Below, in pieces: positions 9,640 to 63,945 of a stretch of 64,000 bases of DNA. This DNA comes from Staphylococcus phage vB_SurM-PSU4, in sequence record OL436245.1. One strand, given 5' to 3'. The stretch's first letter is position 1. Every line of letters starts with the position of its first letter. The position numbers were made by a program, and so were the translations under genes. A model generated the notes under the pieces. It was given only the letters and a program-made list of their open reading frames with translations, did not search any database and was not told where the DNA came from.

Positions 9640-9718
9640 TTTGGTTTATGGTTGTTTATTAAAGGAAAGAAGAACACATTAAAATACTAGAACAATATTA
9701 TTAAAAAATAATATCTTA

Positions 9719-9750
9719 ATAAGACCTATTTATATAGGTCTTATTTTTTA
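9719..9750 (+). terminator. Rho-independent terminator after the tail-lysin block
   Basis: taagacctat/ataggtctta form a 10-bp perfect stem with a 4-nt loop, followed by TTTTTT. An A-run upstream suggests it could act bidirectionally. Confidence 0.6.
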
Positions 9751-9790
9751 ATAAAAATAACTAGGTCGTGCTATATTAGTTGTGTATAGA

Positions 9791-9819
9791 TTGGAGATAC
9801 ATAAAAAATATGTTATAAT
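9791..9819 (+). promoter_or_regulatory. Sigma-A-like promoter TTGGAG-17-TGtTATAAT
   Basis: An extended -10 at 9811-9819 sits 17 nt after a TTGGAG -35, directly upstream of the baseplate gene block. Confidence 0.45.
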
Positions 9820-9836
9820 ATAGAGAGGTGAAAATT

Positions 9837-20106: not shown

Positions 20107-20130
20107 AAAGGGCTATCAAGCCCTTTTTCT
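20107..20130 (+). terminator. Rho-independent terminator
   Basis: aaagggct-atca-agcccttt hairpin followed by a T-run, immediately after the stop at 20104. Confidence 0.6.
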
Positions 20131-22747: not shown

Positions 22748-24147
22748 TGGCTGTAGAATTTAACAGAATAACAGAAACTGATACCTTCCTTAAATACACA
22801 GAAGAACTTAATAAAATAGGTGGGGAGTTGTCTAAATCAGGCAATATCTTCACCCAAGTTAATGACTTAAAATCTTCTTTAGGAAACTCACAAAGATACA
22901 AACTAACAACAGATACAGGATTAGCTTTAAGCAAGACAATAAGATACTTGTCAGACTTAACTCAAGCAGGTACTTATTATGTGACAGCATCTGTATTAGC
23001 AACATTACCAGATAAACCTAAATCTCTAATTACAAGTGATTCTATTATAGAAATAAAACCTACAAGAAGAGAAGCTGAAGTTATTCAGCAAATCACAACA
23101 TTAGGTAAAAACTTAGAAGATGGTAAAGTTGTTTATAGGTTTATTACACAAGAAGGTAACTCAGAGTGGGTATACTTTAATGCGTTATCTAATAATAGAT
23201 ATTTTAGTAAGTCTTTAGACTTATCAAATACAGCTGAACCTGGTACTTATTTCTTAACAAATAATAGTACTGGTTTACCTGAAGAAATTAAAAATCCTGA
23301 AGGTGTTGTTAAAATATTTGTAGATAACAATAATAATAAATACTATGAATATTATAATAATGAATTAGGAATGTTCTATACAGGGTATAAAACTTCATCT
23401 CAATCATCAATAGGTTGGAAGACAAATAAAACAGATGCAAGTGAAATACAGAACCTCTTATTAGGGGATGTAGGTGTTACAGAGACAGGTAAAGAGTATT
23501 CAAACTTTGGTCTATTTGTTTATAAGTCAGATAATATTGATTGGGAAACAGCAGTATTAAATAAGTTAAAAACAGGTAAAACAATGTTTACCTTCTATTG
23601 TCAAGGTGGTGTAGATAAATCACCTGCTGGTAAGTATAGTAGCCGAGGAATGGTAATTTCTGATACACCAGAAGGTGGTTACGGTATTTATTACGCAATT
23701 ACCAATGGTGGGAGATTATTTACAGGAGCTATAAGTAGTTCCACTTTCACCCCTCCAAATACTACACCAAGTGGAAATGTCCTATGGCAAGGTGCTTTAA
23801 ACTTTAAAACAGTTAATAAAACTCAAAAAATGAGAGACACAATTAATAATTATGAATATGTTGAAGTATATACTAAAATGAGAACCTTTAAAGAAACTAA
23901 AGGAAAAGACCTTATTCAAAATATAGCACATAAATTCTATAGAGATGGAGAAACTTATTTTGTATGTACAGGCTCTATACTAGGTGGAGAGTTTGATGGA
24001 AGTAAAAATGTTCCTTCTCAAGATGTATACAGAGTAAGTTTAGAGTTTAAAGGAGATACCTTCCAACTTAAAGATAGTGCAATAAATAGTGATAAAACTC
24101 AATATGTAACCAGAATCATTGGTTATAATATGATAGATGCCTTTTAA
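22747..24147 (+). CDS. Receptor-binding protein 2, 466 aa
   Basis: Its N-terminus MAVEFNRITETD parallels the protein at 20337. Start overlaps the previous stop by one base (TAATG). Confidence 0.6.
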   Translation: MAVEFNRITETDTFLKYTEELNKIGGELSKSGNIFTQVNDLKSSLGNSQRYKLTTDTGLALSKTIRYLSDLTQAGTYYVTASVLATLPDKPKSLITSDSIIEIKPTRREAEVIQQITTLGKNLEDGKVVYRFITQEGNSEWVYFNALSNNRYFSKSLDLSNTAEPGTYFLTNNSTGLPEEIKNPEGVVKIFVDNNNNKYYEYYNNELGMFYTGYKTSSQSSIGWKTNKTDASEIQNLLLGDVGVTETGKEYSNFGLFVYKSDNIDWETAVLNKLKTGKTMFTFYCQGGVDKSPAGKYSSRGMVISDTPEGGYGIYYAITNGGRLFTGAISSSTFTPPNTTPSGNVLWQGALNFKTVNKTQKMRDTINNYEYVEVYTKMRTFKETKGKDLIQNIAHKFYRDGETYFVCTGSILGGEFDGSKNVPSQDVYRVSLEFKGDTFQLKDSAINSDKTQYVTRIIGYNMIDAF

Positions 24148-24165
24148 TAAAGGGCATCTTTTTTT
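24135..24165 (+). terminator. Rho-independent terminator closing the structural block
   Basis: agatgcctttt / aaagggcatct hairpin with one bulged base, followed by a 7-T run. Confidence 0.55.
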
Positions 24166-24192
24166 GACTTAATTTAACTTATATGGTATAAT
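24164..24192 (+). promoter_or_regulatory. Strong sigma-A-type promoter TTGACT-17-TGgTATAAT
   Basis: Consensus -35 at 24164-24169 and extended -10 at 24184-24192 with exact 17-bp spacing. Sits directly upstream of the helicase gene. Confidence 0.6.
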
Positions 24193-29265: not shown

Positions 29266-29294
29266 AAACTACCTATTGACTTAGGTAGTTTTTT
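29266..29294 (+). terminator. Rho-independent terminator (9-bp perfect stem, loop attgactt, T-run)
   Basis: aaactacct / aggtagttt is a perfect inverted repeat followed by TTTTT. Confidence 0.6.
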
Positions 29295-29304
29295 ATTGTA
29301 TAAT
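29276..29304 (+). promoter_or_regulatory. Promoter TTGACT-17-TATAAT embedded in the terminator
   Basis: The -35 TTGACT is the hairpin loop (29276-29281) and the -10 TATAAT is at 29299-29304. Confidence 0.5.
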
Positions 29305-29336
29305 GATATTATAAACAAATAAAGGAGAAGTTATAT

Positions 29337-29675
29337 ATGGATATTACTTACATAAAAGAATTACCAGAGGAAAGTATCGAAAGTTTGATAGAAACATTAG
29401 AAGGTGCAATTGATATTGTACTAGACGAACAAAAAGGTGAAGAGGATGAATACAATTTAGTAAAACTAGAAATGACAATTAAAGTATTAGAAGGTATTAA
29501 AAAAGGAGAAGACTTTGTTGATACATGGTATACAGAAGGATGGGAATATGCACACTTTGTACCTAGAGTACTAGATGAAATGGGGATATTCCACTTGGAA
29601 GAAAAACTAAATAACAGTTCAGAAACAATTGTATGCACAATGTATTTAAATATTGACAATGACCAAGTATTATAG
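29337..29675 (+). CDS. Small highly acidic protein, 112 aa
   Basis: AAAGGAG RBS. The sequence is Glu/Asp-rich. Confidence 0.5.
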   Translation: MDITYIKELPEESIESLIETLEGAIDIVLDEQKGEEDEYNLVKLEMTIKVLEGIKKGEDFVDTWYTEGWEYAHFVPRVLDEMGIFHLEEKLNNSSETIVCTMYLNIDNDQVL

Positions 29676-29713
29676 TATACTTGGTTTACAAACAAAAAAA
29701 GGAGAGATTTATA

Positions 29714-33295: not shown

Positions 33296-33934
33296 GTGAA
33301 ATTAGTAATTAAAGATAGGGAAAATAGTTATTTGAAATGTAGATATAAGAATTCAGAGGATAAAATTATTAAGGTTAACTTGGATAATTTAATTGAATGG
33401 TATCCATTAAGTTTAGCATATGATTTGAAAATAAGTAATACAGGTGATAAAATACAACTATGTAGATTAACTTCTACATTACCTAAACACTATAAAGAAA
33501 CAGACACTTACTTAGTAGATGAACAAGATTATACTGAATACTTTACATTTGATAGTGTGAAAGAAGATAACCTTAAACTTAAAGAAAGAGCAAAGGAATT
33601 TGATATTACATTCATCGATGAAGACTTTGATATAGAAAAAGTATTAATGAACTTTGCTAAGATTAGAATGATTTTTGAAAAAGTTAATTTAATTGTATTA
33701 GAGAAATATAAAGAGACTTTAAATAATAAACAATTAAAGAGATTAATTGATAATGATTTAACGACACAAATTGATAGAGCTCTAAGTAAGAGTGATGATA
33801 CTTTAAACAATGCTTATGATGAATTAGGACAGTTATACAACATGTCTGTTATTATGAAGAAAATTGCAAGTATTGGAAAAGGGATAGGATATAAAGATAG
33901 ACTTGAAAGTCTACAGTATATGTTAAAGGAATGA
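33296..33934 (+). CDS. Hypothetical protein, 212 aa
   Basis: GTG start overlapping the sbcC stop; GGAGG lies upstream. Confidence 0.5.
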   Translation: MKLVIKDRENSYLKCRYKNSEDKIIKVNLDNLIEWYPLSLAYDLKISNTGDKIQLCRLTSTLPKHYKETDTYLVDEQDYTEYFTFDSVKEDNLKLKERAKEFDITFIDEDFDIEKVLMNFAKIRMIFEKVNLIVLEKYKETLNNKQLKRLIDNDLTTQIDRALSKSDDTLNNAYDELGQLYNMSVIMKKIASIGKGIGYKDRLESLQYMLKE

Positions 33935-35002: not shown

Positions 35003-35031
35003 TTGTTAAATACAAGATATTGTGGTATAAT
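35003..35031 (+). promoter_or_regulatory. Promoter TTGTTA-17-TGgTATAAT
   Basis: Extended -10 at 35023-35031. Lies in the gap after the primase gene. Confidence 0.5.
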
Positions 35032-36381: not shown

Positions 36382-36396
36382 GGAGAATGTTTAATA

Positions 36397-36708
36397 ATGG
36401 CAGTAATTGATATAGAAACAAAAGATTTTGATAATAAAACAAAAGAAGGGTTAAACCTAGTTGATTTATGGGCACCTTGGTGTAGCGTATGTAAAATGGT
36501 TATGCCTTCTGTAGAAGCTATCGGTGAAGAATCTAATGACCTGGATGTTCTTAAAGTTAATATTGATGAAGAACCTGATGTATCTTCAAATCTTGGAGTT
36601 ATGAGTATTCCTACATTGATACTATACAAAGATGGAGAAAAAGTAGATAGTATTAATGGTTTTGCACCTAAAGAAAAAATTGAGGAAATGATTGAAAAAC
36701 ATAAATAA
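36397..36708 (+). CDS. Thioredoxin-like protein (CxxC = WCSVC)
   Basis: LVDLWAPWCSVCKMV thioredoxin-fold active site. Lies directly upstream of the RNR genes. Confidence 0.65.
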   Translation: MAVIDIETKDFDNKTKEGLNLVDLWAPWCSVCKMVMPSVEAIGEESNDLDVLKVNIDEEPDVSSNLGVMSIPTLILYKDGEKVDSINGFAPKEKIEEMIEKHK

Positions 36709-36724
36709 AAAAGGGGATATTTGA

Positions 36725-38074
36725 TTGATTACGCAAATTAAGAAACGTGACGGGTCTGTTGTGGAGTATGACCTAAATAAAATAACAAATGCTATCCTAA
36801 GAGCTAATACAGAAACGAATGAGTTCTTGGAAGATAATATCGATACTTTAGTAGAAGATGTAGATAGTCTATTAGAAGAAAAAGAAGAGACACTTACAGT
36901 AGAGTGTGTTCAAGATACAGTGGAAGAAGTATTGCTTGGTAGTAAGTATAAAGATACTGCTAAGGCTTTTATTTTGTATAGAGACAAAAGAGATAGAGAA
37001 CGTAGACGAGATATATTTAAACCAAGAAAAGAATTAAAACCTTATGAATACCCTGAATTACTAGAATATGCAGATGCTATTAGAAACAGTTATTGGATTC
37101 ATACCGAATTTAATTATACAAGTGATATTCAAGACTTTAAACAAAATGTTAAACCTCACGAACGAACTGCAATTAAAAATGCTATGTTAGCTATTGCACA
37201 AGTTGAAGTTGCTGTTAAAACATTTTGGGGTGACCTATATCATCGTATGCCTAAATGGGAAACAGGTGCAGTTGGTGCAACGTTCTCAGAATCAGAAGTT
37301 AGACATGCTGATGCTTACTCTCACCTACTAGAATTGTTAGGATTAAATGAAGAATTTAAACATATAGACGATATACCTGCATTAAGAGAGCGTGTAGATG
37401 AGCTTACTATGCACACTAAATTAAGTAAGAGTGAAGATAATAGAGACTATGTACTATCAGTATTACTATTCTCACTATTTATTGAGCATGTATCATTATT
37501 CAGTCAATTCTTAATCATGATGAGTTTCAATAAACATAAGAACCTATTCAGAGGGTTATCTAATGCTATTGAGGCTACATCTAAAGAAGAACAAATTCAT
37601 GGTCTATTTGGTATTGAAATTATTAATATCTTAAGAGGAGAACATCCTGAATGGTTCGATGGGGAAATGAAACGTACAGTATATGAAGCATGTGAACATT
37701 CATATGAAACAGAGAAAAAAGTTTTAGACTGGTTATATGAAGACGGTGAGTTAGAGTTCTTACCTAAGCGTACTGTAAAAGAATTTATTAAAAACAGATT
37801 AAACAATTCTTTAGAATCAATCGGATTTGAAAAATTATTTAAAATTGATGAAGAAGTGTTAGCAGAAACAGCATGGTTTGATGATGAAGTTATTAGTACG
37901 AAACTAACGGATTTCTTATCTAAACGTTCTGTTAACTATACTAAGTTTACAAACACAGTAACAGAAGATACACTATTCTCATCTAATTCAGAGTTTGAAG
38001 AAAATGAAGAAAAATTGTCTAAAGACAAGGTTAATGAGATTTTAAGAATGAGAATGTTAACACTAGGTAATTAA
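36725..38074 (+). CDS. Ribonucleotide reductase small (radical-generating) subunit with N-terminal ATP-cone
   Basis: TTG start after GGGG. Residues 1-95 have an ATP-cone signature (IKKRDGSVVEYDLNKITNAILRA...VQDTVEEVL...AKAFILYRDKR). Ferritin-like R2 metal-site motifs follow (SESEVRHADAYSHLL, EEQIHGLFGIEIIN). Confidence 0.8.
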   Translation: MITQIKKRDGSVVEYDLNKITNAILRANTETNEFLEDNIDTLVEDVDSLLEEKEETLTVECVQDTVEEVLLGSKYKDTAKAFILYRDKRDRERRRDIFKPRKELKPYEYPELLEYADAIRNSYWIHTEFNYTSDIQDFKQNVKPHERTAIKNAMLAIAQVEVAVKTFWGDLYHRMPKWETGAVGATFSESEVRHADAYSHLLELLGLNEEFKHIDDIPALRERVDELTMHTKLSKSEDNRDYVLSVLLFSLFIEHVSLFSQFLIMMSFNKHKNLFRGLSNAIEATSKEEQIHGLFGIEIINILRGEHPEWFDGEMKRTVYEACEHSYETEKKVLDWLYEDGELEFLPKRTVKEFIKNRLNNSLESIGFEKLFKIDEEVLAETAWFDDEVISTKLTDFLSKRSVNYTKFTNTVTEDTLFSSNSEFEENEEKLSKDKVNEILRMRMLTLGN

Positions 38075-38090
38075 TGGAGGAGAATAGATA

Positions 38091-39773
38091 TTGGCAAACT
38101 TTGAATGGTTAAACACAGATTCACGAGTATTCTTAGAGAGAGGATACTTAAGTGAAGGTGAGACACCTGAACAACGAATTAAAGATATAGCAAATAAAGC
38201 TGAGGATATCTTAGGTATTGAAGGTTTTTCAGATAAATTTTATGACTACATGAGTAGAGGTTTTTACTCTTTATCAAGTCCTGTATGGGCTAACTTTGGT
38301 AAAGGTAAGGGATTAAGTATCAGCTGTTTTGGTAGTTATGTTGAAGATAACATCCCAAGTATTTTAAACTCTGCCAGTGAAGTAGGAATAATGAGTAAGT
38401 ATGGTGGAGGTACTAGCGGTTACTTTGGTGAAATAAGACCTCGAGGTGCTAAAATCACTGATAATGGAGAGACAAGTGGTTCTGTACATTTTATGAAATT
38501 ATTTGAAACAGAAACAGATGTAGTATCTCAGGGAAACACACGTAGAGGACGTTTTAGTCCTTACTTACCTATTGACCACCCTGATATTGATGAATTTTTA
38601 GAAATAGGTACAGAAGGTAATCCAATCCAAAACATGACACATGCAGTATCTATTACAGATGACTGGATGTTAGAGATGATTAATGGTGATAGAGAGAAAC
38701 GTAGAATATGGTCTAAAGTACTTACACGTAGAACTCAACTAGGTTTCCCTTATATATTCTTCCATACTAATGCTAATAAAAATACAGTAGATGTTTATAA
38801 AGATAAAGGATTAGTAATTAATAACTCAAACTTATGTTCAGAGATAATGTTACCTAATAAAGAAGATTGGTCATTTGTTTGTGACTTATCTAGTATGAAC
38901 TTAGTTAAATATGAAGAATGGAAAGACACTGATGCAGTAGAAACAATGGTATATTTCTTAGATGCAGTAATGAGTGAATTTATTTCAGACTTAGAGTCAT
39001 TGAGAGATTCACAAGATAGAGAAGAAGTAGAAGCTTTTAAACTAATGGAACGTGCTTATAACTTTGCTAAAGAAAATCGTGCCTTAGGTTTAGGTGTGTT
39101 AGGTTGGCACTCATACTTACAATCTAAACTTATTCCTTTTGAAAGTGTAGAGGCAAGTAGATTAAATTCACAAATATTTGTTTTAATTAGAAAACGTGCA
39201 TATAAAGCAAGTGAAGAGTTAGCAAACTTATTAGGAGAACCAGAAATTCTAAAAGGATACGGTAGACGTAACACAACGTTACTTGCTGTAGCTCCAACAA
39301 CTTCAAGTTCATTCATTCTTGGACAAGTTTCTAAATCAATAGAACCTTTCATGAGTAACTACTATGTTGTTGATACTGCTAAAGTTAAAAAAACTATGAT
39401 TAACCCTTATCTAAAAGAATTATTACAAGAAAAAGGTAAGGACACAAAAGAAGTGATGGAAAGTATTAGAGATAATGATGGTTCTGTTCAACACTTAGAT
39501 TTCCTAAATCAAACAGAAAAAGAAGTATTTAAGACTTATGGGGAAATCAATCAATATAATATTTTAGACCAAGCAGCAACAAGACAATATTATATTGACC
39601 AAGGACAATCTCTAAATATTATGGTTAATCCTACTAATGTTACTTCTGAAGAATTAAATGAATTATACCTATTTGCTTGGGCTAATGGAATTAAATCATT
39701 ATATTACCAACATGGTACTAATGCAGCACAACAATTCAACCTATCAAAACTATGTATTAATTGCGAAGCTTAA
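38091..39773 (+). CDS. Ribonucleotide reductase catalytic subunit, minimal 560-aa form lacking ATP-cone and N-terminal domain
   Basis: TTG start after GGAGG. Motifs SISCFGSYVEDNIP, active-site NLCSEI and C-terminal CINCEA. The protein begins at the region homologous to roughly residue 200 onward of canonical alpha subunits. Confidence 0.85.
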   Translation: MANFEWLNTDSRVFLERGYLSEGETPEQRIKDIANKAEDILGIEGFSDKFYDYMSRGFYSLSSPVWANFGKGKGLSISCFGSYVEDNIPSILNSASEVGIMSKYGGGTSGYFGEIRPRGAKITDNGETSGSVHFMKLFETETDVVSQGNTRRGRFSPYLPIDHPDIDEFLEIGTEGNPIQNMTHAVSITDDWMLEMINGDREKRRIWSKVLTRRTQLGFPYIFFHTNANKNTVDVYKDKGLVINNSNLCSEIMLPNKEDWSFVCDLSSMNLVKYEEWKDTDAVETMVYFLDAVMSEFISDLESLRDSQDREEVEAFKLMERAYNFAKENRALGLGVLGWHSYLQSKLIPFESVEASRLNSQIFVLIRKRAYKASEELANLLGEPEILKGYGRRNTTLLAVAPTTSSSFILGQVSKSIEPFMSNYYVVDTAKVKKTMINPYLKELLQEKGKDTKEVMESIRDNDGSVQHLDFLNQTEKEVFKTYGEINQYNILDQAATRQYYIDQGQSLNIMVNPTNVTSEELNELYLFAWANGIKSLYYQHGTNAAQQFNLSKLCINCEA

Positions 39774-39790
39774 CAATAAAGGAGATTATT

Positions 39791-40153
39791 ATGGAGCCTA
39801 AAAAGATTGAACAAGTAGAAAGTTTAGTAGAATTAGAAACTTTAGCTGGAACTAATGATAAGTTATTAGTAATGATTAGTGAAGATAATTGTGGTTTTTG
39901 TTCTATGTTAGAGTTTGGTATTGGAAGTTATATAGATGCCTTACAATTAGATATTCACTCAGTTAACTTAAATACAGACCAAGCTAAAGAAGGAAAAGAA
40001 ACTGTAGAAAAGTATTTTGATATTAAAGAAGTACCTACACTATTAGGTTTTAAAGATGGAGAGCTAGTTTCTCAAAAAGAAATAAAAGAACCTACAGAAG
40101 GTATTAATAAAATGGATGCTTTAGTAAAAGACTTAGGAATTAGTTTAAGCTAA
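39791..40153 (+). CDS. Second thioredoxin/glutaredoxin-like protein (CGFC)
   Basis: The ATG at 39791 has AAAGGAG 6 nt upstream; the TTG at 39761 in the track lies inside the RNR gene. Carries a DNCGFCSML motif. Confidence 0.55.
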   Translation: MEPKKIEQVESLVELETLAGTNDKLLVMISEDNCGFCSMLEFGIGSYIDALQLDIHSVNLNTDQAKEGKETVEKYFDIKEVPTLLGFKDGELVSQKEIKEPTEGINKMDALVKDLGISLS

Positions 40154-40160: not shown

Positions 40161-40188
40161 TTGAATACACCACTACTTATGTTATAAT
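40161..40188 (+). promoter_or_regulatory. Promoter TTGAAT-16-TGtTATAAT
   Basis: Extended -10 at 40180-40188. The -10 lies inside the loop of the hairpin at 40167-40210. Confidence 0.45.
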
Positions 40189-40215
40189 ATATGTAACAGG
40201 GTAGTGGTGTTTTTT
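40167..40215 (+). terminator. Hairpin terminator (10-bp perfect stem acaccactac/gtagtggtgt, 24-nt loop, TTTTT)
   Basis: Perfect inverted repeat followed by a T-run. The large loop carries the promoter's -10 element. Confidence 0.45.
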
Positions 40216-40241
40216 AATATAAAATTAAAGGAGAATTAAAG

Positions 40242-40970: not shown

Positions 40971-41266
40971 TTAACAGAAAAGACTTAGCTAGAAGAATAT
41001 CTGATAAGACAGGTTATTTTATAAGAGATATAGAAGAAATACTAGAAGCCGAAGAAGATAGTATAGCAGAATTTATATCAGAAGGACATAAGAAAATCAA
41101 ACATCATAAACTATTTCAATTAGAGATTAAGACTAGACCAAGTAAGACAGCTTATGATGGATTTAATAAAGAATATTTTGAATTACCAGAGAGAAAATAT
41201 ATAGAATTTAAACCTTTAACACAACTAGAAAAAGCAATAGAAGATTTAAACACAGAAAGCAATTAG
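40967..41266 (+). CDS. HU/IHF-family DNA-binding protein (TF1-like)
   Basis: The C-terminal arm FQLEIKTRPSKTAYDGFNKEYFELPERKYIEFKPLTQL fits the HU beta-arm pattern (GFG.F...R..R.G.NP.T......FK.G..L). Confidence 0.65.
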   Translation: MINRKDLARRISDKTGYFIRDIEEILEAEEDSIAEFISEGHKKIKHHKLFQLEIKTRPSKTAYDGFNKEYFELPERKYIEFKPLTQLEKAIEDLNTESN

Positions 41267-41285
41267 TACTTGCTTTCTTTTTTTA
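41254..41285 (+). terminator. Rho-independent terminator
   Basis: agaaagcaa-ttagtac-ttgctttct followed by a 7-T run. Confidence 0.55.
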
Positions 41286-41298
41286 TTTATGCTATACT
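41270..41298 (+). promoter_or_regulatory. Promoter TTGCTT-17-TGcTATACT overlapping the terminator's 3' arm
   Basis: The -35 lies within the 3' arm of the hairpin. Extended -10 at 41290-41298. Confidence 0.4.
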
Positions 41299-41331
41299 AT
41301 ATACATAACGAATAAAAGGAGGATAAAAGAA

Positions 41332-41612: not shown

Positions 41613-44600
41613 TTGAAAGTTTTATTTTTATTAGATTTCATAAGGGTAGACCATTACGACAATAATGGACATTGGAAATACTTGCAAACACAGAATGGTA
41701 AAACATTTAAACAAGTTATAGAATCAACAACAAGTTTAAGAAGAGAAGGACAACGTAAAGATTATGTATTTGACTACGTATATAATCAAATTCCTCAACC
41801 TATTTACAATAACTATGGTAAGGTTATTAAATATGAAGACGTAAAGCTAACAGAAGCTAAACCTTTCATGGAAGAACTTAAAGCTAGAATAGAAGAAATC
41901 AAACCAGATATTATAGTACCTACAGGTAAGTTAGGTATTAAGATGTTATTGAATGTAACTAAGTTAGGTTCTGTTAGAGGGGTTCCTAAAAAGGTAGATA
42001 TAGGGGAGGTTTCTACTTGGGTATTACCGACATATAGTATTGAATATACAAATGTAAATAAAAACAGTGAAAGACAAGTCTTAGCTGATATGGATATATT
42101 AGAAAGATATGTACAAAACGGTGAAGAAGTCTTTAAACCTAAAGAAGTTAAATATGAGTTTGTAGATAATATTGAAAGAGTAAGAGAAATATTTACTAAA
42201 GAAGTTAAGCAAGATGAGAATGATGGTGTAGATATAACTGCATGGGATTTAGAAACCAATTCATTAAGACCAGACTTAGAAGGAAGTAAAGCTCTAGTAG
42301 CATCTCTAAGTTGGAAGAATGGTCAAGGAGTAACAATACCTTTATACAAATCAGATTTTGAGTGGGCTAATGGACAACAAGATATTGATGAAGTGTTAAG
42401 TTTAATGAAAGAATGGTTAGCTGATAAAGAAGATGTAAAAGTTGGACACAACATAGGTTATGATGAGAATTTCTTAATGTCTACAGAAAATATACAAGAG
42501 TATGAAAATGTAGAAGACACTAAAGTGGGTTGGTATTTAGCAGTATCTCAAGAAGCTAGTGAGTCTTTAAGACTTACAAATTTAGCTTATGAAGCCACTG
42601 ATATGGGTGGGTATGATGAACCATTAGAAAACTTTAAAGTATGGTTTGTTACAAAACTATTAAAAGATTTAGATAAAGAAATGAAAGAGATACAAAAAGA
42701 AAATAAGAAGATAGCTAAAAAAGAATATGGTATTAAAGCAAATGAATATAAGAAGTGGATAGAAGACAATATCGATTTCACTAAAGATTTAGAAGAACAA
42801 TACACTAACTTAAAGCTTAATCCAGAAGTTATAACAAAAGAACATATTAATGACAAAGTATTAGAAGAATCTGAAGAATATGTGAACTTATCTGATAAAG
42901 GTAAAGTATATACCCTAGAAACAGCTATTAGTTTGATTAATAAATTCAGAGAACAGAAGAATGTTGTTAATGAAGTAGATGGAGGTAAGTTTAGTTACGA
43001 CTGGTTCCCTATAGAACTAATGCACCCTTATGCTAGTGGAGATGTTGATGTATGTCGAAGAATTTATTGTGAAGTATTAAGAAAGCTAGAGAAACAAGAC
43101 AGACCTAAAGCTCTTAGACTTCTAAAGGAAGATTACCCAAGACTAACAAGAACATTAGCTAGAATACAAAGCAATGGTTTCCATATGGATAAAGATTATA
43201 TGAAAAAGAATGATGAAGCTTATAGAGAAGAGATGGAAAAAACTCATGAAGAAATGAGAAAACATTGGTCAGTTATTGAGTTTGAAGAAATAAGATATAA
43301 TCTCTTTGAAAAAGGTTTAGAAGAATTTGAAAACAAACCACCTAAAGATAGAGACAAAGAGTTAGCTGAGTATAGAACGAAGTTTAAAGATGGTGGTTGG
43401 AAGTTTAGCCCAAGTTCAGGAGAACATAAAGGTGAAATATTATATGACATTTTAGGTATATCATTACCTTATGATAAACAGTATGTAAAAGATAAACCTT
43501 TCAATGCAAATATTCCTGAGAGTGAATTAACGTGGAAAGACTATAGAACAAATAAAGATGCTATAGACTATGCTTTAGATAAAGAAGAAAACGAAAGTAC
43601 TAAAGAACTTTTAGAACTAATGCAATACTATGCAACTTTACAAACTAAGAGAACTGGGTTTACTTATAAATTACCTAGAATTATAAATAAAGAAACAGGT
43701 AATTTACATCCTGGGTATAACATCACAGGAACAGAAACTTCTAGGTTAAGTAGTAGTAATCCTAACATCCAACAAATTCCTGCACATACAAGTGATGTAG
43801 ATAAATTTGACTATAAACATCCTATTAAGTCTTCTTTTATTTCCAGACATAAGGATGGTGTTATTCTTCAATTTGACTATTCAGCCCTAGAGATGCGTAT
43901 TATGGGAGCTTACACAAAAGACGAACATATGCTTCAAGCTTTCTTAGACGGTGAGGATTTCCATAAATCTACTGCAAGTATTGTTTATGGTAAACCTATA
44001 AGTGAAGTAACTTCAGAAGAGAGACAAGCTACAAAAGCTGTAAACTTCGGTATTGCCTATGGACAATCTTCATCCACTCTAGCAAATAATTTAGGTATAT
44101 CTAAAGAAGAAGGGGAAGAAATATTTAATAAATATTATGCTACTAAACCTAAGGTTAAAGACTCTATAGACTATGTTCATAATTTTGTTCAGGAAAATGG
44201 TTATGTAGAAACAATGAGCGGACATAGAAGATTTTTAGCAGATGCTCAAAGTATGGATAAGAAAAAGAGAAGTGAAGCTTTGAGACAATCATATAATACA
44301 GTTATACAAGGGTCAGGGTCTTATTTAACAAATATGGCTTTAACCTATATAGATGATTATATACAAGGAAAAAACATGAAAAGTGATATTGTAGCTACAG
44401 TACATGATAGTATCGTACTAGATTGTCCACCTGAAGAGGTTAGTATTATGTATAAAGTTGTAAAGACTATAATGGAGAATCTACCTTTTGATTTCTTAAA
44501 GGTAGAATACAAGGGAGAAAATATACAATACCCTATAGCATCTGATGCTGAAATAGGTTTTAACTATAATGATGCTGTTGAATATGATGAAGAAGAAGTA

Positions 44601-44753
44601 AAAGAATTTAATTCTTTTAAAGGTTATATTAATTATTATTTATCTTTACAGAAACTTAAAGATTACTTTGAATCTAAGAAGATTAATGAAGAGCAATATA
44701 AAGAAGCAATTAGGCAAGTGGAAGAACAGAAACATTTATATCAAGAAATGTAA
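41613..44753 (+). CDS. DNA polymerase I-type (family A) with N-terminal 3'-5' exonuclease, uninterrupted 1046 aa
   Basis: TTG start after GAGGAGG. Motif A DYSALEMRIM, motif B RQATKAVNFGIAYGQ and motif C VHDSIVLD are present. N-terminal exonuclease region is present. No intron or intein disruption. Confidence 0.9.
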   Translation: MKVLFLLDFIRVDHYDNNGHWKYLQTQNGKTFKQVIESTTSLRREGQRKDYVFDYVYNQIPQPIYNNYGKVIKYEDVKLTEAKPFMEELKARIEEIKPDIIVPTGKLGIKMLLNVTKLGSVRGVPKKVDIGEVSTWVLPTYSIEYTNVNKNSERQVLADMDILERYVQNGEEVFKPKEVKYEFVDNIERVREIFTKEVKQDENDGVDITAWDLETNSLRPDLEGSKALVASLSWKNGQGVTIPLYKSDFEWANGQQDIDEVLSLMKEWLADKEDVKVGHNIGYDENFLMSTENIQEYENVEDTKVGWYLAVSQEASESLRLTNLAYEATDMGGYDEPLENFKVWFVTKLLKDLDKEMKEIQKENKKIAKKEYGIKANEYKKWIEDNIDFTKDLEEQYTNLKLNPEVITKEHINDKVLEESEEYVNLSDKGKVYTLETAISLINKFREQKNVVNEVDGGKFSYDWFPIELMHPYASGDVDVCRRIYCEVLRKLEKQDRPKALRLLKEDYPRLTRTLARIQSNGFHMDKDYMKKNDEAYREEMEKTHEEMRKHWSVIEFEEIRYNLFEKGLEEFENKPPKDRDKELAEYRTKFKDGGWKFSPSSGEHKGEILYDILGISLPYDKQYVKDKPFNANIPESELTWKDYRTNKDAIDYALDKEENESTKELLELMQYYATLQTKRTGFTYKLPRIINKETGNLHPGYNITGTETSRLSSSNPNIQQIPAHTSDVDKFDYKHPIKSSFISRHKDGVILQFDYSALEMRIMGAYTKDEHMLQAFLDGEDFHKSTASIVYGKPISEVTSEERQATKAVNFGIAYGQSSSTLANNLGISKEEGEEIFNKYYATKPKVKDSIDYVHNFVQENGYVETMSGHRRFLADAQSMDKKKRSEALRQSYNTVIQGSGSYLTNMALTYIDDYIQGKNMKSDIVATVHDSIVLDCPPEEVSIMYKVVKTIMENLPFDFLKVEYKGENIQYPIASDAEIGFNYNDAVEYDEEEVKEFNSFKGYINYYLSLQKLKDYFESKKINEEQYKEAIRQVEEQKHLYQEM

Positions 44754-44764: not shown

Positions 44765-44793
44765 AGGAAACCTATTGACTTAGGTTTCCTTTT
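44765..44793 (+). terminator. Rho-independent terminator (10-bp perfect stem, 6-nt loop ttgact, T-run; A-run upstream)
   Basis: aggaaaccta / taggtttcct perfect inverted repeat. Confidence 0.6.
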
Positions 44794-44803
44794 ATTATAT
44801 ACT
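44775..44803 (+). promoter_or_regulatory. Promoter TTGACT-17-TATACT embedded in the terminator
   Basis: The -35 is the hairpin loop itself. The -10 is at 44798-44803. Confidence 0.5.
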
Positions 44804-45861: not shown

Positions 45862-45890
45862 TTGACATTACTTTTGAGTCGTGATACAAT
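45862..45890 (+). promoter_or_regulatory. Promoter TTGACA-17-TGaTACAAT
   Basis: Consensus -35 and extended -10, directly upstream of the acidic 83-aa gene. Confidence 0.55.
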
Positions 45891-45919
45891 TAGTATATAA
45901 AATTAAAGGAGAGATTTAA

Positions 45920-46171: not shown

Positions 46172-46249
46172 TGGTACTTTTAGATTTTTTATTTGATGAA
46201 TATGGTGAAGTTGAAAAATAAATATATATATCTAAGTATAGGAGGAATT

Positions 46250-47392
46250 ATGAAAGAACTAGAGACATGGTTAACACCTATAGATACTTATTACAAACAA
46301 AAAAGGTATGGTAGGGTAAAATATGTTAAATGTGTTTGTAAATGTGGAAATATTAAAGAAATAAGTTACACAAATTATAAAAACGGAAATACAAGAAGCT
46401 GTGGTTGTTACAGTAAATTTAAACTTAAAGATAAGTATGGATATAAAAATCGTAAACAAGGATGTTTAAATATAATAAATATAGGAGGGGAAGTATATTA
46501 TCCTTTATTTGAGTTTTATGGTTATTATGTAAATACAAACGGAAATGTCTATAGTGCTAAAACAGATAAAATATTAAAACAGGATACATCTAAAAAAGGT
46601 TATCGTTCTGTAGGTTTGTATAATAATATAGGAAGAGCTACTAGACAAAGAGTTCATAGAATAGTTGCGAGTGTTTTTATTATTAATAATCATAACTTAC
46701 CTCAAGTTAATCATAAGGATGGGGATAAAGAAAATAATCATGCCAGTAATCTTGAATGGTGTACTAGTCAATACAACTCTAAGCACGCTTGGGATACAGG
46801 GTTAAATAAACCAAGAAGAGGAGAAAAATCTTCAGTAAATAAATTGTCTGAAAAAGAAGTTGTAGAAATTTATAAAAGTAATAAAACAACTAAAGAGCTA
46901 TCGGAAATTTTTAATATAAGTCCTAGAACTATACGAGATATTAAACGAGATAAGACTTGGACAGACACTACAAAAAACCTTAAAAAAGGAAAGCAACCAG
47001 AGAATAAGAAGTTTTCTGAACCAGATATTGTTCATATTTACACTTCTGATGAGACTAGTAAAAATTTATCGATACTTTATGATTGCCCTGAACCTACTAT
47101 TAAAAGTATTCTAAGCGGTAAGTCTTATAAAGATGTAACTAGAAATTTAAAAAAAGGTAAAAATCCTAACAGATTAACAAAAGAGGAAGTTGAATATATT
47201 TATTTAACTAAGTATACTTACAAAGAATTGAAAAATAAGATAAATGTATCAGAGCCTGTAGTATCTTCAATAAGAAATAATAAAAGTTATACCAAAATAA
47301 CTAAATATTTACAAGGTAAATCAGAAGAAGATATTGAAAGAGAATACGAAATTAGTCAAGAGGCTGGCGATGATTATATAGGAGGACTATAA
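46250..47392 (+). CDS. Freestanding HNH homing-endonuclease-like protein with N-terminal Cys cluster and three C-terminal NUMOD-like DNA-binding repeats
   Basis: ATG 4 nt after AGGAGG. HNH motif NHKDGDKENNHASNLEW. Zn module CVCKCGN...RSCGC. Three repeats of the K-E-L-S...T-I...K-x-W pattern. Confidence 0.7.
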   Translation: MKELETWLTPIDTYYKQKRYGRVKYVKCVCKCGNIKEISYTNYKNGNTRSCGCYSKFKLKDKYGYKNRKQGCLNIINIGGEVYYPLFEFYGYYVNTNGNVYSAKTDKILKQDTSKKGYRSVGLYNNIGRATRQRVHRIVASVFIINNHNLPQVNHKDGDKENNHASNLEWCTSQYNSKHAWDTGLNKPRRGEKSSVNKLSEKEVVEIYKSNKTTKELSEIFNISPRTIRDIKRDKTWTDTTKNLKKGKQPENKKFSEPDIVHIYTSDETSKNLSILYDCPEPTIKSILSGKSYKDVTRNLKKGKNPNRLTKEEVEYIYLTKYTYKELKNKINVSEPVVSSIRNNKSYTKITKYLQGKSEEDIEREYEISQEAGDDYIGGL

Positions 47393-48718: not shown

Positions 48719-49308
48719 ACATAGAAGCACTAGCATGGATATTATTCTTTTTATCTGGGATACTATACATTGTAGGCTATCTTCCTGGATTAAGAGCTAT
48801 GTATATAGATAAGAGTGTAGAAGGAGTATCACAATTCTTTTGGGAACTGGTATTAACTACAGTTTCATTTAGTTTCTACACTTTAATTATCACAGGAGCA
48901 GATATTGTAAATATTGTTGTAGTAGGTTGTAATATGTTTTTAGCTTTAATTATGTTAGCTTGGAAGAATATATTAAGATACCAAGCAATCGGAATATTAT
49001 ATACAATACTATATATAGTAATAAACTTAATGGTTTACTTTGTATTTGATATTTCACTAAGCAGCTTACAGTCTATAGCGACAATAACAATTATTTTAGC
49101 ATATGTAGACCAGATAATTAGATTTGTAGTAAGGAAAACAGCAGTAGGTACAAGCCCTTTACTATACTTTATTTTAGGAATGGCTATACTATTTTTAATA
49201 CTTAATTTGTTATTGACAAATGCTTATATACATGTTATAATAACAGAAGTAGTTAACCTAATCTTAATTATAATATGTTTCTTTATGTGTATGAAATATC
49301 GAGCTTGA
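48715..49308 (+). CDS. Polytopic membrane protein, about 6 TM helices
   Basis: Hydrophobic throughout; overlaps the upstream gene by 4 nt. Confidence 0.5.
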   Translation: MNIEALAWILFFLSGILYIVGYLPGLRAMYIDKSVEGVSQFFWELVLTTVSFSFYTLIITGADIVNIVVVGCNMFLALIMLAWKNILRYQAIGILYTILYIVINLMVYFVFDISLSSLQSIATITIILAYVDQIIRFVVRKTAVGTSPLLYFILGMAILFLILNLLLTNAYIHVIITEVVNLILIIICFFMCMKYRA

Positions 49309-49333
49309 CAAGAATGGAAACAGATGTTATAAT
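49305..49333 (+). promoter_or_regulatory. Strong promoter TTGACA-17-TGtTATAAT
   Basis: Consensus elements with exact 17-bp spacing. Overlaps the stop codon of the membrane protein gene. Confidence 0.6.
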
Positions 49334-51097: not shown

Positions 51098-51128
51098 AGT
51101 AGCACTTAATTGTGCTACTTTATTTTTT
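51098..51128 (+). terminator. Rho-independent terminator
   Basis: agtagcac-ttaatt-gtgctact followed by ttattttttt. Confidence 0.55.
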
Positions 51129-51155: not shown

Positions 51156-52382
51156 ATGGCAAGAAGTAGTAAAAAACAATTTGATATGTCTGATTTAAAT
51201 ACAATTGATTTAGGTAAAGAAATGGGATTGACAATCCTATCAGATACAAACAAAGCAGATATTAAAAATATATTACCTACAAGAGTACCTCAATATGATA
51301 GAATTATGGGTGGAGGGATTCCTTTAGGTAGACTTACCGAGGTTTACGGGATACCTGGGAGCGGCAAGAGTACTTTTGCTGTGCACCTAACAAAAACACT
51401 AATTGATTTAGGTATTATTACTGTTTGGGTAGATACAGAAGGTACAGCCGATAATGCAAGAATGGAACAACTAGGTGTGGATATTACTAAGATATTCTCT
51501 ATTCAAGCAGGAGAAGGTCAGAGACTTAAAAATACAGTTGAGTTATCTATTGAACAAGTAGGTAAGGAATTAGAGTATTGGGTAGATACTTTTAATGAGA
51601 AGTACCCAGGTGTACCTATTGTATTTATATGGGATTCACTAGGTGCTACACGCTCACAAACAGAAATAGATGGCGGTATCGATACTAAACAGATGGGTAT
51701 AAGAGCTTCTGCCACACAAAAAGTTATTAATGCTATAACACCTAAATTAAATAATACAAACACAGGTATTATTGTTGTAAACCAAGCAAGAGACGACATG
51801 GATGCAGGTATGTATGGGGATAAAGTTAAATCTGGTGGAGGTAAAGCTTTTGAGCATAGTGCTAGTTTAAGACTTAAAGTTAATAAAGGAGCACAAGTAA
51901 AACAACATAAAGAAACAGCAGGTAAAGAAGAATATTCAGGACATTCTATGAGATTGGAAACTAAAAAGTCTAAGTTATCTAGACCTAACCAAAAAGCAAG
52001 TTCTGATTTACTTTCAGAATGGGAATTATCTACAGGAGAAGTTATTAACGGTTTAGACCCTGAGTATACAATTTATCAGGAAGCTGTCGATAAAGGTTTT
52101 ATTACTAAAGGAGCATGGAGAAACTACGTTACTTTAAATGGTGAAGAAATTAAATTACGTGATGCTGAATGGGTTCCTAGACTTAAGGAAGATACTGAGT
52201 TGTTTGAAGAGCTATTTAAACGTACTTATGTAGCAAATTTCCCTAAAGGGTATGCACCATTAAAGAATAAAGATGTAGATATTACAACTATACCTGAATA
52301 TAAAGCACTAGAAGAATATTATGATGAACTAGAAAAAGAAAAACCTAAAGAAGAAACAAAAGGAGAGCAGGAAGACCAATAA
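51156..52382 (+). CDS. RecA/UvsX-like recombinase
   Basis: Walker A GIPGSGKSTFA in a RecA-fold context; AAGAGGAGG RBS. Confidence 0.85.
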   Translation: MARSSKKQFDMSDLNTIDLGKEMGLTILSDTNKADIKNILPTRVPQYDRIMGGGIPLGRLTEVYGIPGSGKSTFAVHLTKTLIDLGIITVWVDTEGTADNARMEQLGVDITKIFSIQAGEGQRLKNTVELSIEQVGKELEYWVDTFNEKYPGVPIVFIWDSLGATRSQTEIDGGIDTKQMGIRASATQKVINAITPKLNNTNTGIIVVNQARDDMDAGMYGDKVKSGGGKAFEHSASLRLKVNKGAQVKQHKETAGKEEYSGHSMRLETKKSKLSRPNQKASSDLLSEWELSTGEVINGLDPEYTIYQEAVDKGFITKGAWRNYVTLNGEEIKLRDAEWVPRLKEDTELFEELFKRTYVANFPKGYAPLKNKDVDITTIPEYKALEEYYDELEKEKPKEETKGEQEDQ

Positions 52383-52414: not shown

Positions 52415-52777
52415 TTGACAAGTAATATGATTGATGATAACCTAGAACGTATTAAACAGAGTTTAGAAGATGAATCTTATTTAGAAGCAGTACCTGAACC
52501 TTATAGAGATATTAAGACAAGGTTCAAATATATTAAAGAGAATGGATTGTATATTATCTATGAAGAAAGTGGATTTCCTTACACAGATGCAATGGTAATT
52601 TACATTACTGATGTATATGATAGATGGTGTAGGGGTTATTCTATTACTAGATTTAATGGAGAAAATATCCAAGTACCTAGAACAATTCATTATTCAGATA
52701 TATATGTACAAGATAAATATAATAAAGTAAAGATTATTGTAGAGGGAGCTAACCCGTATCGGAGTGAAATGAGTTGA
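52415..52777 (+). CDS. Hypothetical protein, 120 aa
   Basis: TTG start 9 nt after AAAGGAGG. Confidence 0.5.
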   Translation: MTSNMIDDNLERIKQSLEDESYLEAVPEPYRDIKTRFKYIKENGLYIIYEESGFPYTDAMVIYITDVYDRWCRGYSITRFNGENIQVPRTIHYSDIYVQDKYNKVKIIVEGANPYRSEMS

Positions 52778-53427
52778 ATAATGGAAATAGATATGTAATA
52801 GATACAGAAGGATTGAGTCATGAATTAGATAGAGACATAGATAAGCTTATGCACAACTATAAAAACCTTAGATATGCTCTATATTATAGATTTGCAAACC
52901 AAATGGATAGTTATGTTAAGAAAGAAGAACTCTTAGAATACATTAATGAGCAATTCATTAAACTTGTTAAAGAATATAATATTCATAGTGAAGTAGACTT
53001 CCCTTATTACATTAAAAGTAAATTAACAATGAGAGTTAGAAATAGTTATGTTAAAAAGAATAGAGATAGGGAAGCTAATGTTGTATTTGGTAATGATGAT
53101 GATACATTAGAAACGATTATCGAATCAAGTGATAGTGATTTATATATGAATGATTTGGTAAGTTATTTATTCGATGGTGTTGATTTCACTGAAGTTGAGA
53201 GTGAATTATTACATGAAATATTTACAAATGATGAGAATGTAGATGACCCTATCATTGTATCTAATGTAGCTAGTCGAATGGAAGTACCTAGAAAAGATGT
53301 CACACGAACATTAACAGAACTAAAAGATTTTATAAGGTTTAAGTTACATGCACATGAAAGTAATAATAAGGATATAGATATTGTTAAAGGTAGAGTGAAT
53401 ACTGAAAATAATACGTGGGAAATGTAG
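52774..53427 (+). CDS. Putative sigma-like transcription factor
   Basis: TTG start. Has a region-2-like segment (LYYRFANQMDSYV...EQFIKLVKEYN) and a C-terminal HTH-like segment. Confidence 0.45.
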   Translation: MNNGNRYVIDTEGLSHELDRDIDKLMHNYKNLRYALYYRFANQMDSYVKKEELLEYINEQFIKLVKEYNIHSEVDFPYYIKSKLTMRVRNSYVKKNRDREANVVFGNDDDTLETIIESSDSDLYMNDLVSYLFDGVDFTEVESELLHEIFTNDENVDDPIIVSNVASRMEVPRKDVTRTLTELKDFIRFKLHAHESNNKDIDIVKGRVNTENNTWEM

Positions 53428-55020: not shown

Positions 55021-55050
55021 AGACCAACATTAATTTGTTGGTCTTTTTTT
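55021..55050 (+). terminator. Rho-independent terminator (9-bp perfect stem, 7-T run)
   Basis: agaccaaca-ttaatt-tgttggtct followed by TTTTTTT. Confidence 0.6.
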
Positions 55051-55051
55051 A

Positions 55052-55080
55052 TTGACATAAACTATTAACTATGGTATAGT
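55052..55080 (+). promoter_or_regulatory. Strong promoter TTGACA-17-TGgTATAGT
   Basis: Immediately after the terminator; drives the small-gene accessory region. Confidence 0.55.
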
Positions 55081-55112
55081 ATATACATATCAAATAAAAG
55101 GAGAGGTTTTAC

Positions 55113-60871: not shown

Positions 60872-61198
60872 ATGGAACTAATTAATATTGTTATATATGT
60901 TTTATTATTTGTCACAACAGTTAACACAGCTGTTCAAGTAACTACAGGACTAATTGAAGAAAGGAAAGCTTTCCAAAGAACAGGAGAGAGCTTTCCTAAA
61001 TGGACATACAGTTATACAATTATACCTCAGTTGGTATTTATTATTTCAGGGTGTATTGTTTTGAGAATACCTACTACACCTTTATCATTTACATTTGACC
61101 ATGTAATATGGGTAACAGTAGGTGCTTACATCTTATATACTATAAGTACTTTATTAGGTAATTTAATTGTATCATTGTTACAGAAGAGAGATAAGTAA
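60872..61198 (+). CDS. Membrane protein, 108 aa, 3 TM helices
   Basis: GTAGGTGAG RBS; hydrophobic throughout. Confidence 0.5.
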   Translation: MELINIVIYVLLFVTTVNTAVQVTTGLIEERKAFQRTGESFPKWTYSYTIIPQLVFIISGCIVLRIPTTPLSFTFDHVIWVTVGAYILYTISTLLGNLIVSLLQKRDK

Positions 61199-61218
61199 TT
61201 TGACTTATCTCTTTTTTT
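61187..61218 (+). terminator. Rho-independent terminator (10-bp perfect stem agagataagt/acttatctct, 7-T run)
   Basis: Perfect inverted repeat followed by TTTTTTT. The stop codon lies inside the 5' arm. Confidence 0.6.
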
Positions 61219-61228
61219 ATGATATAAT
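61200..61228 (+). promoter_or_regulatory. Promoter TTGACT-17-TATAAT embedded in the terminator loop and 3' arm
   Basis: TTGACT at 61200-61205 and TATAAT at 61223-61228. Confidence 0.5.
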
Positions 61229-63875: not shown

Positions 63876-63905
63876 CTTGACATCCCTCCTTAATTATTGT
63901 ATACT
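63876..63905 (+). promoter_or_regulatory. Promoter TTGACA-18-TATACT
   Basis: Consensus -35 at 63876-63881. A TG immediately precedes the -10 at 63900-63905. Confidence 0.5.
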
Positions 63906-63928
63906 AAGAATATAATTAATTAAGGAGG
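63883..63928 (+). promoter_or_regulatory. 12-bp perfect hairpin pairing an anti-SD (cctccttaatta) with the downstream RBS (taattaaggagg)
   Basis: The 5' arm at 63885-63896 and the 3' arm at 63917-63928 are exact reverse complements. The 20-nt loop contains the promoter's -10. Confidence 0.5.
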
Positions 63929-63945
63929 TTTTTATATGTTTATGT

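Follow-up and report, generated by a model that had tools for sequence, protein, structure and literature searches.

The closest known kind of element to those described here is the PeSL (promoter-early stem-loop) of T4-type phages, of which the cassettes in this phage are a Gram-positive counterpart. PeSLs are composites of a sigma-70 promoter and a terminating stem-loop, and recombination between PeSLs shuffles ORFans (Arbiol et al. 2010, PMC2839356; Comeau et al. 2014, PMC4122927). Five subclasses are distinguished by the position of the stem-loop, which may be upstream of the -35, overlapping the -35 or the -10, between the two boxes or after the -10 (PMC2839356, PMC4122927). Among phages closer to the one examined here, RNA-seq of the Kayvirus vB_SauM-515A1 yielded 58 early sigma-A promoters with the consensus TTGACW, 17 nt, TRTG, TATANT (Kornienko et al. 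2020, PMC7698491), as well as 12 late promoters (TGTTATATTA, with no -35) and about 42 terminators, all boundaries being coverage steps in ordinary RNA-seq rather than Term-seq or dRNA-seq ends (PMC7698491). Promoters and terminators are listed separately in the papers on 515A1, phage K (PMC9241854, PMC11598898) and ISP and in reviews, and their overlap is not discussed. In the literature covered, which did not include Lobocka et al. 2012 (Adv Virus Res), we found no explicit description of such an overlap in Herelleviridae and none that links PeSLs to this family.

The DNA examined (the window) is a stretch of 64,000 nucleotides from Staphylococcus phage vB_SurM-PSU4 (sequence record OL436245.1). 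It is about 30% GC and has essentially all of its genes on the + strand, which also carries every feature described below. Megablast placed it in the Staphylococcus Twortvirinae (Herelleviridae), the nearest annotated relatives, at about 92–93% identity, being phiSA_BS1/BS2 (Baoshanvirus), JDF86 and Golestan101-M. The identity to phiSA_BS1 was about 93%, and a single IMG/VR contig of 140,164 bp was about 98% identical. The gene order runs from tail and baseplate genes through a block encoding helicase, nuclease, primase, ribonucleotide reductase and DNA polymerase to small genes of unknown function, and is syntenic with that of 515A1, with 65–77% nucleotide identity in genes. No Rfam family scored above threshold anywhere in the window.

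A scan of the + strand found 18 terminator-like sites and 46 strong promoter-like sites, and in eight cases the two overlapped to form a composite. In 100 dinucleotide-preserving shuffles the corresponding number was 0.25 ± 0.54, with a maximum of 3. One of the eight, at 61048–61088, is a doubtful member (promoter score 10/12, inside a gene). Together with sites described previously or found by folding, the cassettes in the window fall into four geometry classes.

In class 1, the -35 forms the hairpin loop or lies within the 3' arm, and the U-tract is in the spacer. Module B (29266–29304) has a 10-bp stem at 29266–29291 enclosing a 6-nt loop that is exactly the -35 TTGACT (29276–29281). Its 17-nt spacer consists of the 3' arm and the U-tract and leads to the -10 TATAAT at 29299–29304, with a Shine-Dalgarno sequence near 29322 and an ATG at 29337 (fold -12.1 kcal/mol, z -5.9). 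Module F (44765–44803), located after the stop codon of the DNA polymerase gene and before an ORFan, also has a 10-bp stem (44765–44790) with the -35 TTGACT as its loop (44775–44780), a U-tract in a 17-nt spacer and a -10 TATACT at 44798–44803 (-14.3 kcal/mol, z -4.3). In module H (61184–61228), the hairpin at 61184–61215, with a core at 61189–61212, has the stop codon of the upstream gene in its 5' arm, and the -35 TTGACT (61200–61205) straddles the loop and 3' arm. The 17-nt spacer again holds the U-tract and is followed by TGaTATAAT ending at 61228 (-10 TATAAT at 61223–61228; fold -15.4 kcal/mol, z -5.6). Module E (41254–41298) is a variant of this class, found upstream of a small ORF that precedes DNA polymerase. 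A weak -35 TTGCTT (41270–41275) lies in the 3' arm of the hairpin at 41254–41278, the U-tract is in the 17-nt spacer, and the -10 TATACT (41293–41298) is preceded by TGC, giving the extended -10 TGCTATACT (-9.2 kcal/mol, z -4.0). These are the four hairpins for which the preliminary description had claimed a -35 in the loop or 3' arm and a -10 at 17 bp. All four read as it stated and are recovered by consensus scans, module E lying below the -35 threshold of the composite scan.

In class 2, the promoter lies within the hairpin, with the 5' arm in the spacer, the -10 near the apex and an inner helix closing the loop. Module D (40161–40216) has its -35 TTGAAT at 40161, a 16-nt spacer that includes the 5' arm and a hairpin at 40167–40210. 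The -10 TATAAT (40183–40188), part of TGTTATAAT, is near the apex within the inner helix, so that the enclosure of the -10 reported earlier for this site was borne out. A T-run follows at 40211–40216 and the predicted start site is in the descending arm (-23 kcal/mol, z -5.9). Module I (63877–63933) has the -35 TTGACA at 63877, the -10 TATACT at 63900–63905 near the apex, a hairpin at 63885–63928 whose 3' arm carries the Shine-Dalgarno sequence AAGGAGG, a T-run at 63929–63933 and an ATG at 63936 (-18.1 kcal/mol, z -4.9).

Class 3 consists of cassettes in which the U-tract abuts or overlaps the -35. In module A (24135–24192), upstream of helicase A, the hairpin at 24135–24159 is followed by a T-run that overlaps the -35 TTGACT (24164–24169) by 2 nt, a 17-nt spacer and TGgTATAAT, with the -10 at 24187–24192 (-13 kcal/mol, z -4.9). 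In module G (55021–55080), the hairpin at 55021–55044 and TTTTTTTA abut the -35 TTGACA (55052–55057), and after a 17-nt spacer TGgTATAGT ends at 55080 (-13.1 kcal/mol, z -6.0). Both promoters had been described as abutting the T-run, which is exact for 55052 and a 2-nt overlap for 24164.

Three sites were found beyond the seven already reported, namely module I, 29653–29686 and 9718–9778. The second of these, module J, was assigned to class 4. It has an 11/12 promoter with the -35 TTGACA at 29653 and the -10 TATACT at 29676–29681, and its hairpin at 29661–29686 is seen in the fold and has a weak U-tract. The third is a stop/restart boundary in the structural-gene region (9718–9820), where a terminator at 9718–9745 (-14 kcal/mol, z -5.2) is followed by the late-type -10 TGCTATATTA at 9769–9778 and by an extended -10 TGTTATAAT at 9811–9819. 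The late-promoter motif TGYTATATTA was not enriched in the window when one mismatch was allowed (38 matches against 40 expected); its only exact match is the one at 9769.

For contrast, the window also contains terminators and promoters that stand alone. The terminator at 20108–20125, the positional homologue of 515A1 t122, has no overlapping promoter, and that at 51098–51119, the positional homologue of t152, has no overlapping consensus sigma-A promoter. Two sigma-A promoters scoring 12/12, each with a TG extension, are found free of hairpins at 49213–49241 and 49305–49333, and no significant fold was found in this region (49213–49333). Further promoters without a hairpin are at 35003–35031 and 45862–45890.

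The stems of the cassettes are 8–13 bp long with 3–5 G-C pairs, and the large loops in class 2 are closed by an inner helix. Fold energies range from -9.2 to -23 kcal/mol, with z from -3.4 to -6.0 relative to shuffled versions. At least five T within the 8 nt 3' of the stem were present in nine modules, the exception being the 29661–29686 hairpin. With TTGACA and TTGACT both taken as full -35 matches, promoter scores were 10–12 out of 12 in eight modules, and the two boxes are separated by 17 nt in eight modules and by 16 nt in module D. A TG/TRTG extension is present at 24164, 40161, 41270, 55052 and 61200, and absent at 29276, 44775, 63877 and 29653. The promoters are followed on their own strand, at a distance of 20–40 nt, by a Shine-Dalgarno sequence and start codon, and the intergenic gaps that contain the cassettes are 50–102 nt long. 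Most of the modules have stems that are unrelated to each other.

The 14-nt core CCTATTGACTTAGG, reported earlier as common to the 29 kb and 44 kb sites, indeed has just two exact occurrences, at 29272 and 44771. Allowing up to two mismatches gave three matches, compared with 0.40 ± 0.60 in shuffles. In the Kayvirus promoter table TTGAC is commonly preceded by CTA, and pairing in the stem then requires TAG opposite it. These two constraints, the promoter preference and the stem pairing, thus largely explain the shared core. A scan of IMG/VR for CCTATTGACTTAGG gave at least 120 matches, mostly in metagenomic contigs other than relatives of the window; these were rejected as evidence, being by our estimate about the number expected by chance in a collection of this size.

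Comparison with 515A1 showed that six of the seven previously reported sites are positional homologues of terminator/promoter pairs derived from RNA-seq in that phage. Module A (24135) corresponds to t126/p127 (TU25), module B (29266) to t129/p130 (TU26), module D (40161) to t142/p143 (TU27), module E (41254) to t144/p145 (TU28), module G (55021) to t160/p161 (TU30) and module H (61187) to t165/p166 (TU31). The additional boundary at 9718 corresponds to t115/p116 (TU24). Among the seven, only module F (44765) lacks a 515A1 terminator in the same place, where p150 is found alone. In the published analysis p127, p130, p143, p145 and p161 served to build the RNA-seq-derived promoter matrix, and these five and p166 are each listed as the start of a transcription unit (PMC7698491). 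The class can differ at orthologous positions, as for module B relative to t129/p130 and module E relative to t144/p145 (class 3 there). These shifts, and the lack of a terminator at the position of module F, indicate that the exact geometry of the overlap is not strictly required. When we compared the published tables (PMC7698491), 24 of the 43 listed terminator strings were found to have 15 nt or more in common with the promoter string next to them, so the overlap is genome-wide in the published data. The cassette structure is therefore not peculiar to the window. It presumably extends across the Herelleviridae as a whole, and can already be read from the published Kayvirus tables.

To follow the cassettes across lineages, orthologous loci were collected from IMG/VR via three anchor proteins. 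Searches with a single protein reached only close relatives and were replaced by searches with three-sequence alignments. Module D was found in every Staphylococcus Twortvirinae lineage. Its outer stem varies by lineage (ACACCACTAC, TCCTACTATC, AACCTCACTT, ATCCTCTAC, ACCGCTAC and ACACCTACT), and each version is perfectly complementary to its partner arm. The -10 remains close to the apex, and most lineages retain the inner helix that surrounds it. As the stems of module D were shifted relative to one another in a MAFFT alignment, pairing in this module was judged from folds of the individual sequences, and a formal count of pairs was made for module G only. In module G, four of the eight stem pairs have compensatory double changes across six lineages and 97.8% of cells are paired, a value reached in none of 500 shuffles and not approached in any slid register. 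In the orthologues of modules A and G the junction of the T-run and the -35 is kept and the stems are changed, and in those of module H, from Kayvirus and Twort, the stems are unrelated and their 3' arm again contains TTGACT. In these orthologous modules the -35 and -10 boxes are fixed while the stems covary. Composites of classes 1–3 were also found in more distant loci identified by the same anchor protein (36–43% amino-acid identity, 36–42% GC), which presumably belong to other Herelleviridae.

Taken together, these data make it very probable that each cassette is the intrinsic terminator of the upstream unit and the host sigma-A promoter of the next one, sharing nucleotides. The compact, repeated stop-and-restart structure proposed in the preliminary description is supported by the non-randomness of the composites, by the 515A1 homologues and by the compensatory changes in the stems. 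Sequence anatomy, non-randomness, fold stability, RNA-level covariation and cross-genus conservation were computed here, and we infer the actual RNA 3' and 5' ends at the cassettes from the homologues. On the geometry and by analogy with 515A1, transcripts arriving from upstream would contain the whole hairpin and stop. The predicted start site is beyond the 5' arm in every class, and transcripts born in a cassette should therefore lack this arm and escape the terminator that their promoter overlaps. The class 1 spacer is made up of a 10-nt 3' arm and 7 nt of U-tract, which would place the ends of terminated RNAs right next to the -10, on its upstream side. The start of the new RNA would lie about 13–15 nt beyond the terminated 3' end. 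In class 2 the start site is predicted to fall in the descending arm, and the inner helices seem best explained as keeping a large loop compact enough to terminate, which would mean that both functions are under selection at once. In module I, judging from the fold, the Shine-Dalgarno sequence would be paired in read-through RNA and free in RNA started at the cassette. In this way a long one-directional array of genes could be cut into separately tuned early and middle units at minimal cost in DNA. At one such terminator in 515A1, late-phase transcription "almost does not stop" (PMC7698491), suggesting that the cassettes may act as boundaries between units in the early phase and allow read-through in the late phase.

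The window also encodes, at 33296–33934, a homologue of gp67 of phage G1. Osmundson and colleagues are said to have found in 2012 that gp67 binds sigma-A and blocks promoters that depend on UP elements. It is a speculation that hairpin-flanked promoters would not rely on such elements and are connected with gp67 in this way.

A further role, which adds to the shared terminator and promoter and does not exclude it, is a tentative possibility. The cassettes may also act as recombination modules of the PeSL type, with crossovers between them inserting, deleting or swapping the small genes that they flank. Under this proposal, for which we would claim the same limited likelihood, the conserved 40–90-nt boundary repeats would provide the homology and a gene that moved would carry its own stop and start signals. 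Recombination between composite cassettes has a precedent in the PeSLs themselves (PMC2839356, PMC4122927), and one deletion of the expected kind was found. A relative (L028) lacks the ORF at 29337–29680, and the left-hand side of its junction is module B, the right-hand side being the leader from the 29653 cassette (module J). The crossover is in the shared AAACAAA...AAAGGAGA leader, and modules B and J align in register over about 80 nt. Several cassettes also resemble others in non-syntenic positions. The 515A1 pair t194/p195, which precedes an unrelated gene, shares 94% identity with module F over 50 nt, compared with 65–77% for homologous genes. Module B is 86% identical over 56 nt to a site in BS1 located before a Mom-like gene (L004:24547–24602) and 88% identical over 41 nt to 515A1 t204/p205, and is also related to p208. 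Within the window, the -10 and leader of modules E and G are 88% identical over 34 nt and module D shares an 18-nt leader with the promoter at 45862. The gene blocks that are variable relative to 515A1 begin at modules B, F and G.

However, the L028 deletion was the only indel found to be bounded by a cassette on each side. Most other indels relative to close relatives (phiSA_BS1 and the 98% identical contig) are insertions of homing endonucleases or introns, gene replacements or intragenic changes, and do not end in cassettes. Much of the similarity between cassettes could also be convergent, given the constraints that act on the promoter boxes, the U-tract, the AT-rich leader and the Shine-Dalgarno sequence alike, and the neighbours of several cassettes are conserved core genes such as helicase and DNA polymerase, not ORFans. 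Modules A, E and G are next to core genes, and ORFans without a Pfam match follow modules B, J, F and I. The predominance of endonuclease insertions and the possibility of convergence are the reasons why we rate a recombination role no higher than tentative. A broader version, in which Herelleviridae possess a PeSL-like system whose cassettes are portable blocks of homology between positions and genera, perhaps with polymerase restarting on the DNA, is slightly more doubtful still.

It is also conceivable, though we consider it unlikely, that the overlap has a kinetic function, whereby a terminating RNA polymerase re-engages sigma-A and restarts in place or arriving and initiating polymerases exclude each other. 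The second form, by which the output of neighbouring units would be coupled, is judged equally improbable. In classes 1 and 2 the RNA 3' end would be expected at or within the -10 region, and if so the terminating complex must cover the promoter. E. coli RNA polymerase in vitro has been found to stay on the DNA after intrinsic termination, to diffuse and to reinitiate nearby, and reinitiation is increased by added sigma and expected by the authors to depend on the distance between terminator and promoter (PMC6978380). This precedent is confined to E. coli polymerase in vitro. The geometry moreover shifts between orthologous sites, which would be unexpected if a precise register for hand-off were selected, and class 3, terminator-only and promoter-only sites coexist with the overlapping ones.

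That the inverted repeats are DNA operators or cruciforms over the -35, bound by a regulator, rather than RNA terminators is highly improbable. The palindromes are centred on or beside the -35 and two of them share CCTA...TAGG, as an operator might, but the stems differ among modules and among orthologues, so that no single protein site is conserved, and a T-run follows every hairpin except that at 29661. The homologues in 515A1 also coincide with drops in RNA-seq coverage. Further evidence came from internal mispairs, which were counted in 53 distinct sense-strand sequences containing a hairpin and T-run. On the sense strand G.T mispairs numbered 23 and A.C mispairs 2, and on the antisense strand the counts were 3 and 5, respectively. 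An excess of G.T over A.C on the sense strand only indicates that selection acts on the sense RNA, since an RNA helix, unlike a DNA palindrome, would be expected to show such an asymmetry. Variable stems, the sense-only bias and the T-runs thus largely refute the operator or cruciform reading. Chance co-occurrence in 30% GC DNA, raised in the preliminary description as an outcome that a motif scan might reveal, has a negligible probability and is refuted by the shuffles. Weak promoter-like matches as a whole do not exceed the shuffled level (103 against 99.8, 115 against 110.3 and 87 against 109.3), as chance would have it, but the composites do (8 against 0.25 ± 0.54, maximum 3), lie in intergenic gaps on the coding strand (except for the doubtful 61048–61088) and are conserved across genera.

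The elements themselves are ordinary, being intrinsic terminators and sigma-A promoters of a known phage group, and their fusion has a precedent in T4-like phages. What is new is modest, namely the description of four classes in Herelleviridae, the RNA-level covariation beneath a fixed promoter and one deletion from cassette to cassette. A practical consequence is a rule for annotating therapeutic Twortvirinae, in which hairpins with TTGACW in the loop or 3' arm, or with a -10 at the apex, should be sought. The cassettes are also an instance of two signals that are read at different levels, as RNA structure and by DNA recognition, and that share nucleotides yet evolve, with the stems covarying and the boxes fixed. 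For synthetic biology in Gram-positive bacteria, they offer natural stop-and-restart parts of 40–60 nt. Should a recombination role prove correct, modular shuffling through regulatory cassettes would no longer be limited to the T4-like phages but would be shared by another, unrelated family of large myophages.

The cassettes of the window are most similar in detail to the early promoters and terminators of Kayvirus, which have the same promoter consensus and the same type of terminator, and the same overlap classes are visible in the 515A1 tables. The design of module J, for example, is that of t112/p113. The window phage nevertheless belongs to a different, Baoshanvirus-like lineage, and modules B and F have no 515A1 counterpart with both the same position and the same architecture. 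The lambdoid morons provide another comparison, being similar in that single genes lying within a larger transcription unit have their own promoter and terminator (PMC2839356). In morons, the promoter and terminator are separate, flank the gene and are not thought to drive mobility (PMC2839356), whereas in the window the terminator of one unit is fused to the promoter of the next.

Like the PeSLs, the window cassettes are small intergenic composites of a strong sigma-70-type early promoter and a terminating stem-loop, are found between the stop codon of the upstream gene and the Shine-Dalgarno sequence of the downstream gene, and occur in many copies per genome. Both fall into several positional subclasses. 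Gain or loss of genes by crossover between cassettes is a feature of PeSLs, and one such case was found here. The PeSLs are found in T4-like phages of Gram-negative hosts and the window cassettes in a member of the Herelleviridae with a Gram-positive host, and the two share no sequence homology. As the window phage belongs to the Herelleviridae, the relationship to PeSLs is one of analogy rather than homology. There are also differences in build and setting. The stems in the window are AT-rich with 3–5 G-C pairs and have a canonical U-tract that doubles as spacer or upstream flank of the promoter, whereas PeSL stems often contain poly-G/poly-C tracts; and many of the window cassettes flank conserved core replication genes, and not just ORFans in hyperplastic regions.

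The combination of -10 box, 5' leader and Shine-Dalgarno sequence was found to recur in the window, and the copies in modules E (41254-41298) and G (55021-55080), two plus-strand composite terminator-promoter cassettes, are 88% identical over 34 nt (41288-41321 versus 55070-55103). The leader of a third such cassette, module D (40161-40216), matches that of the hairpin-free promoter at 45862-45890 at 18 of 18 nt (40217-40234 versus 45895-45912). In Kayvirus vB_SauM-515A1, terminators t105 (59837) and t160 (116085) represent one 36-nt terminator-plus--35 cassette, AGACCAACTAAAAAGTTGGTCTTTTTTTATTGACA (PMC7698491 Table S3), the two copies of which lie far apart in one genome. An AGAC...GTCT stem base is common to many terminators of the window and its relatives.

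The ORFan at 29337-29680 (112 aa) had no Pfam match. It is found in the window, in phiSA_BS1 and in one further related locus, L027, and is missing from another, L028, in which the junction (L028 8204-8300) falls within the leader common to two promoter cassettes.

Upstream of the gene at 49359 are two tandem sigma-A promoters (49213-49241 and 49305-49333), 92 nt apart, each with a 12/12 match and a TG extension; the first sits within the 3' end of the preceding ORF, and no hairpin is associated with either. The product of 33296-33934 is a homologue of the sigma-A-binding protein gp67 of phage G1, and both Pfam domains match. In relatives, the counterpart of the ORF at 52774-53427 carries the annotation RNA polymerase sigma factor, but the window's version had no significant match to a Pfam sigma domain. 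A late-type TGATATATTA is present at 53445, just downstream of this ORF.

The ribonucleotide reductase block (36397-40153) encodes, in order, a 103-aa thioredoxin, a 449-aa small subunit with an N-terminal ATP-cone, a short large subunit of 560 aa with no ATP-cone and a 130-aa thioredoxin-like protein. Across 36392-39882, homology to phiSA_BS1 at the nucleotide level is lost, and this block differs from the nrdI, nrdE, nrdF arrangement of phiSA_BS1 and Kayvirus. The window-type block is also found in the relative of about 98% identity, an IMG/VR contig.

The same relative lacks window bases 46213-47309 (the site is at L010 12460-12468), and there the flanking sequences form one small gene. In the window, the ORF at 46193-47392 (399 aa) combines repeated helix-turn-helix segments with an HNH_3 motif, and appears to be an inserted homing endonuclease joined in frame. 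The genes for DNA polymerase (41613-44753, 1046 aa) and recombinase (51156-52382, 408 aa) are uninterrupted in the window, whereas the counterparts of both genes in phiSA_BS1 and vB_SauM-515A1 are interrupted by intervening sequences with endonuclease genes in them.
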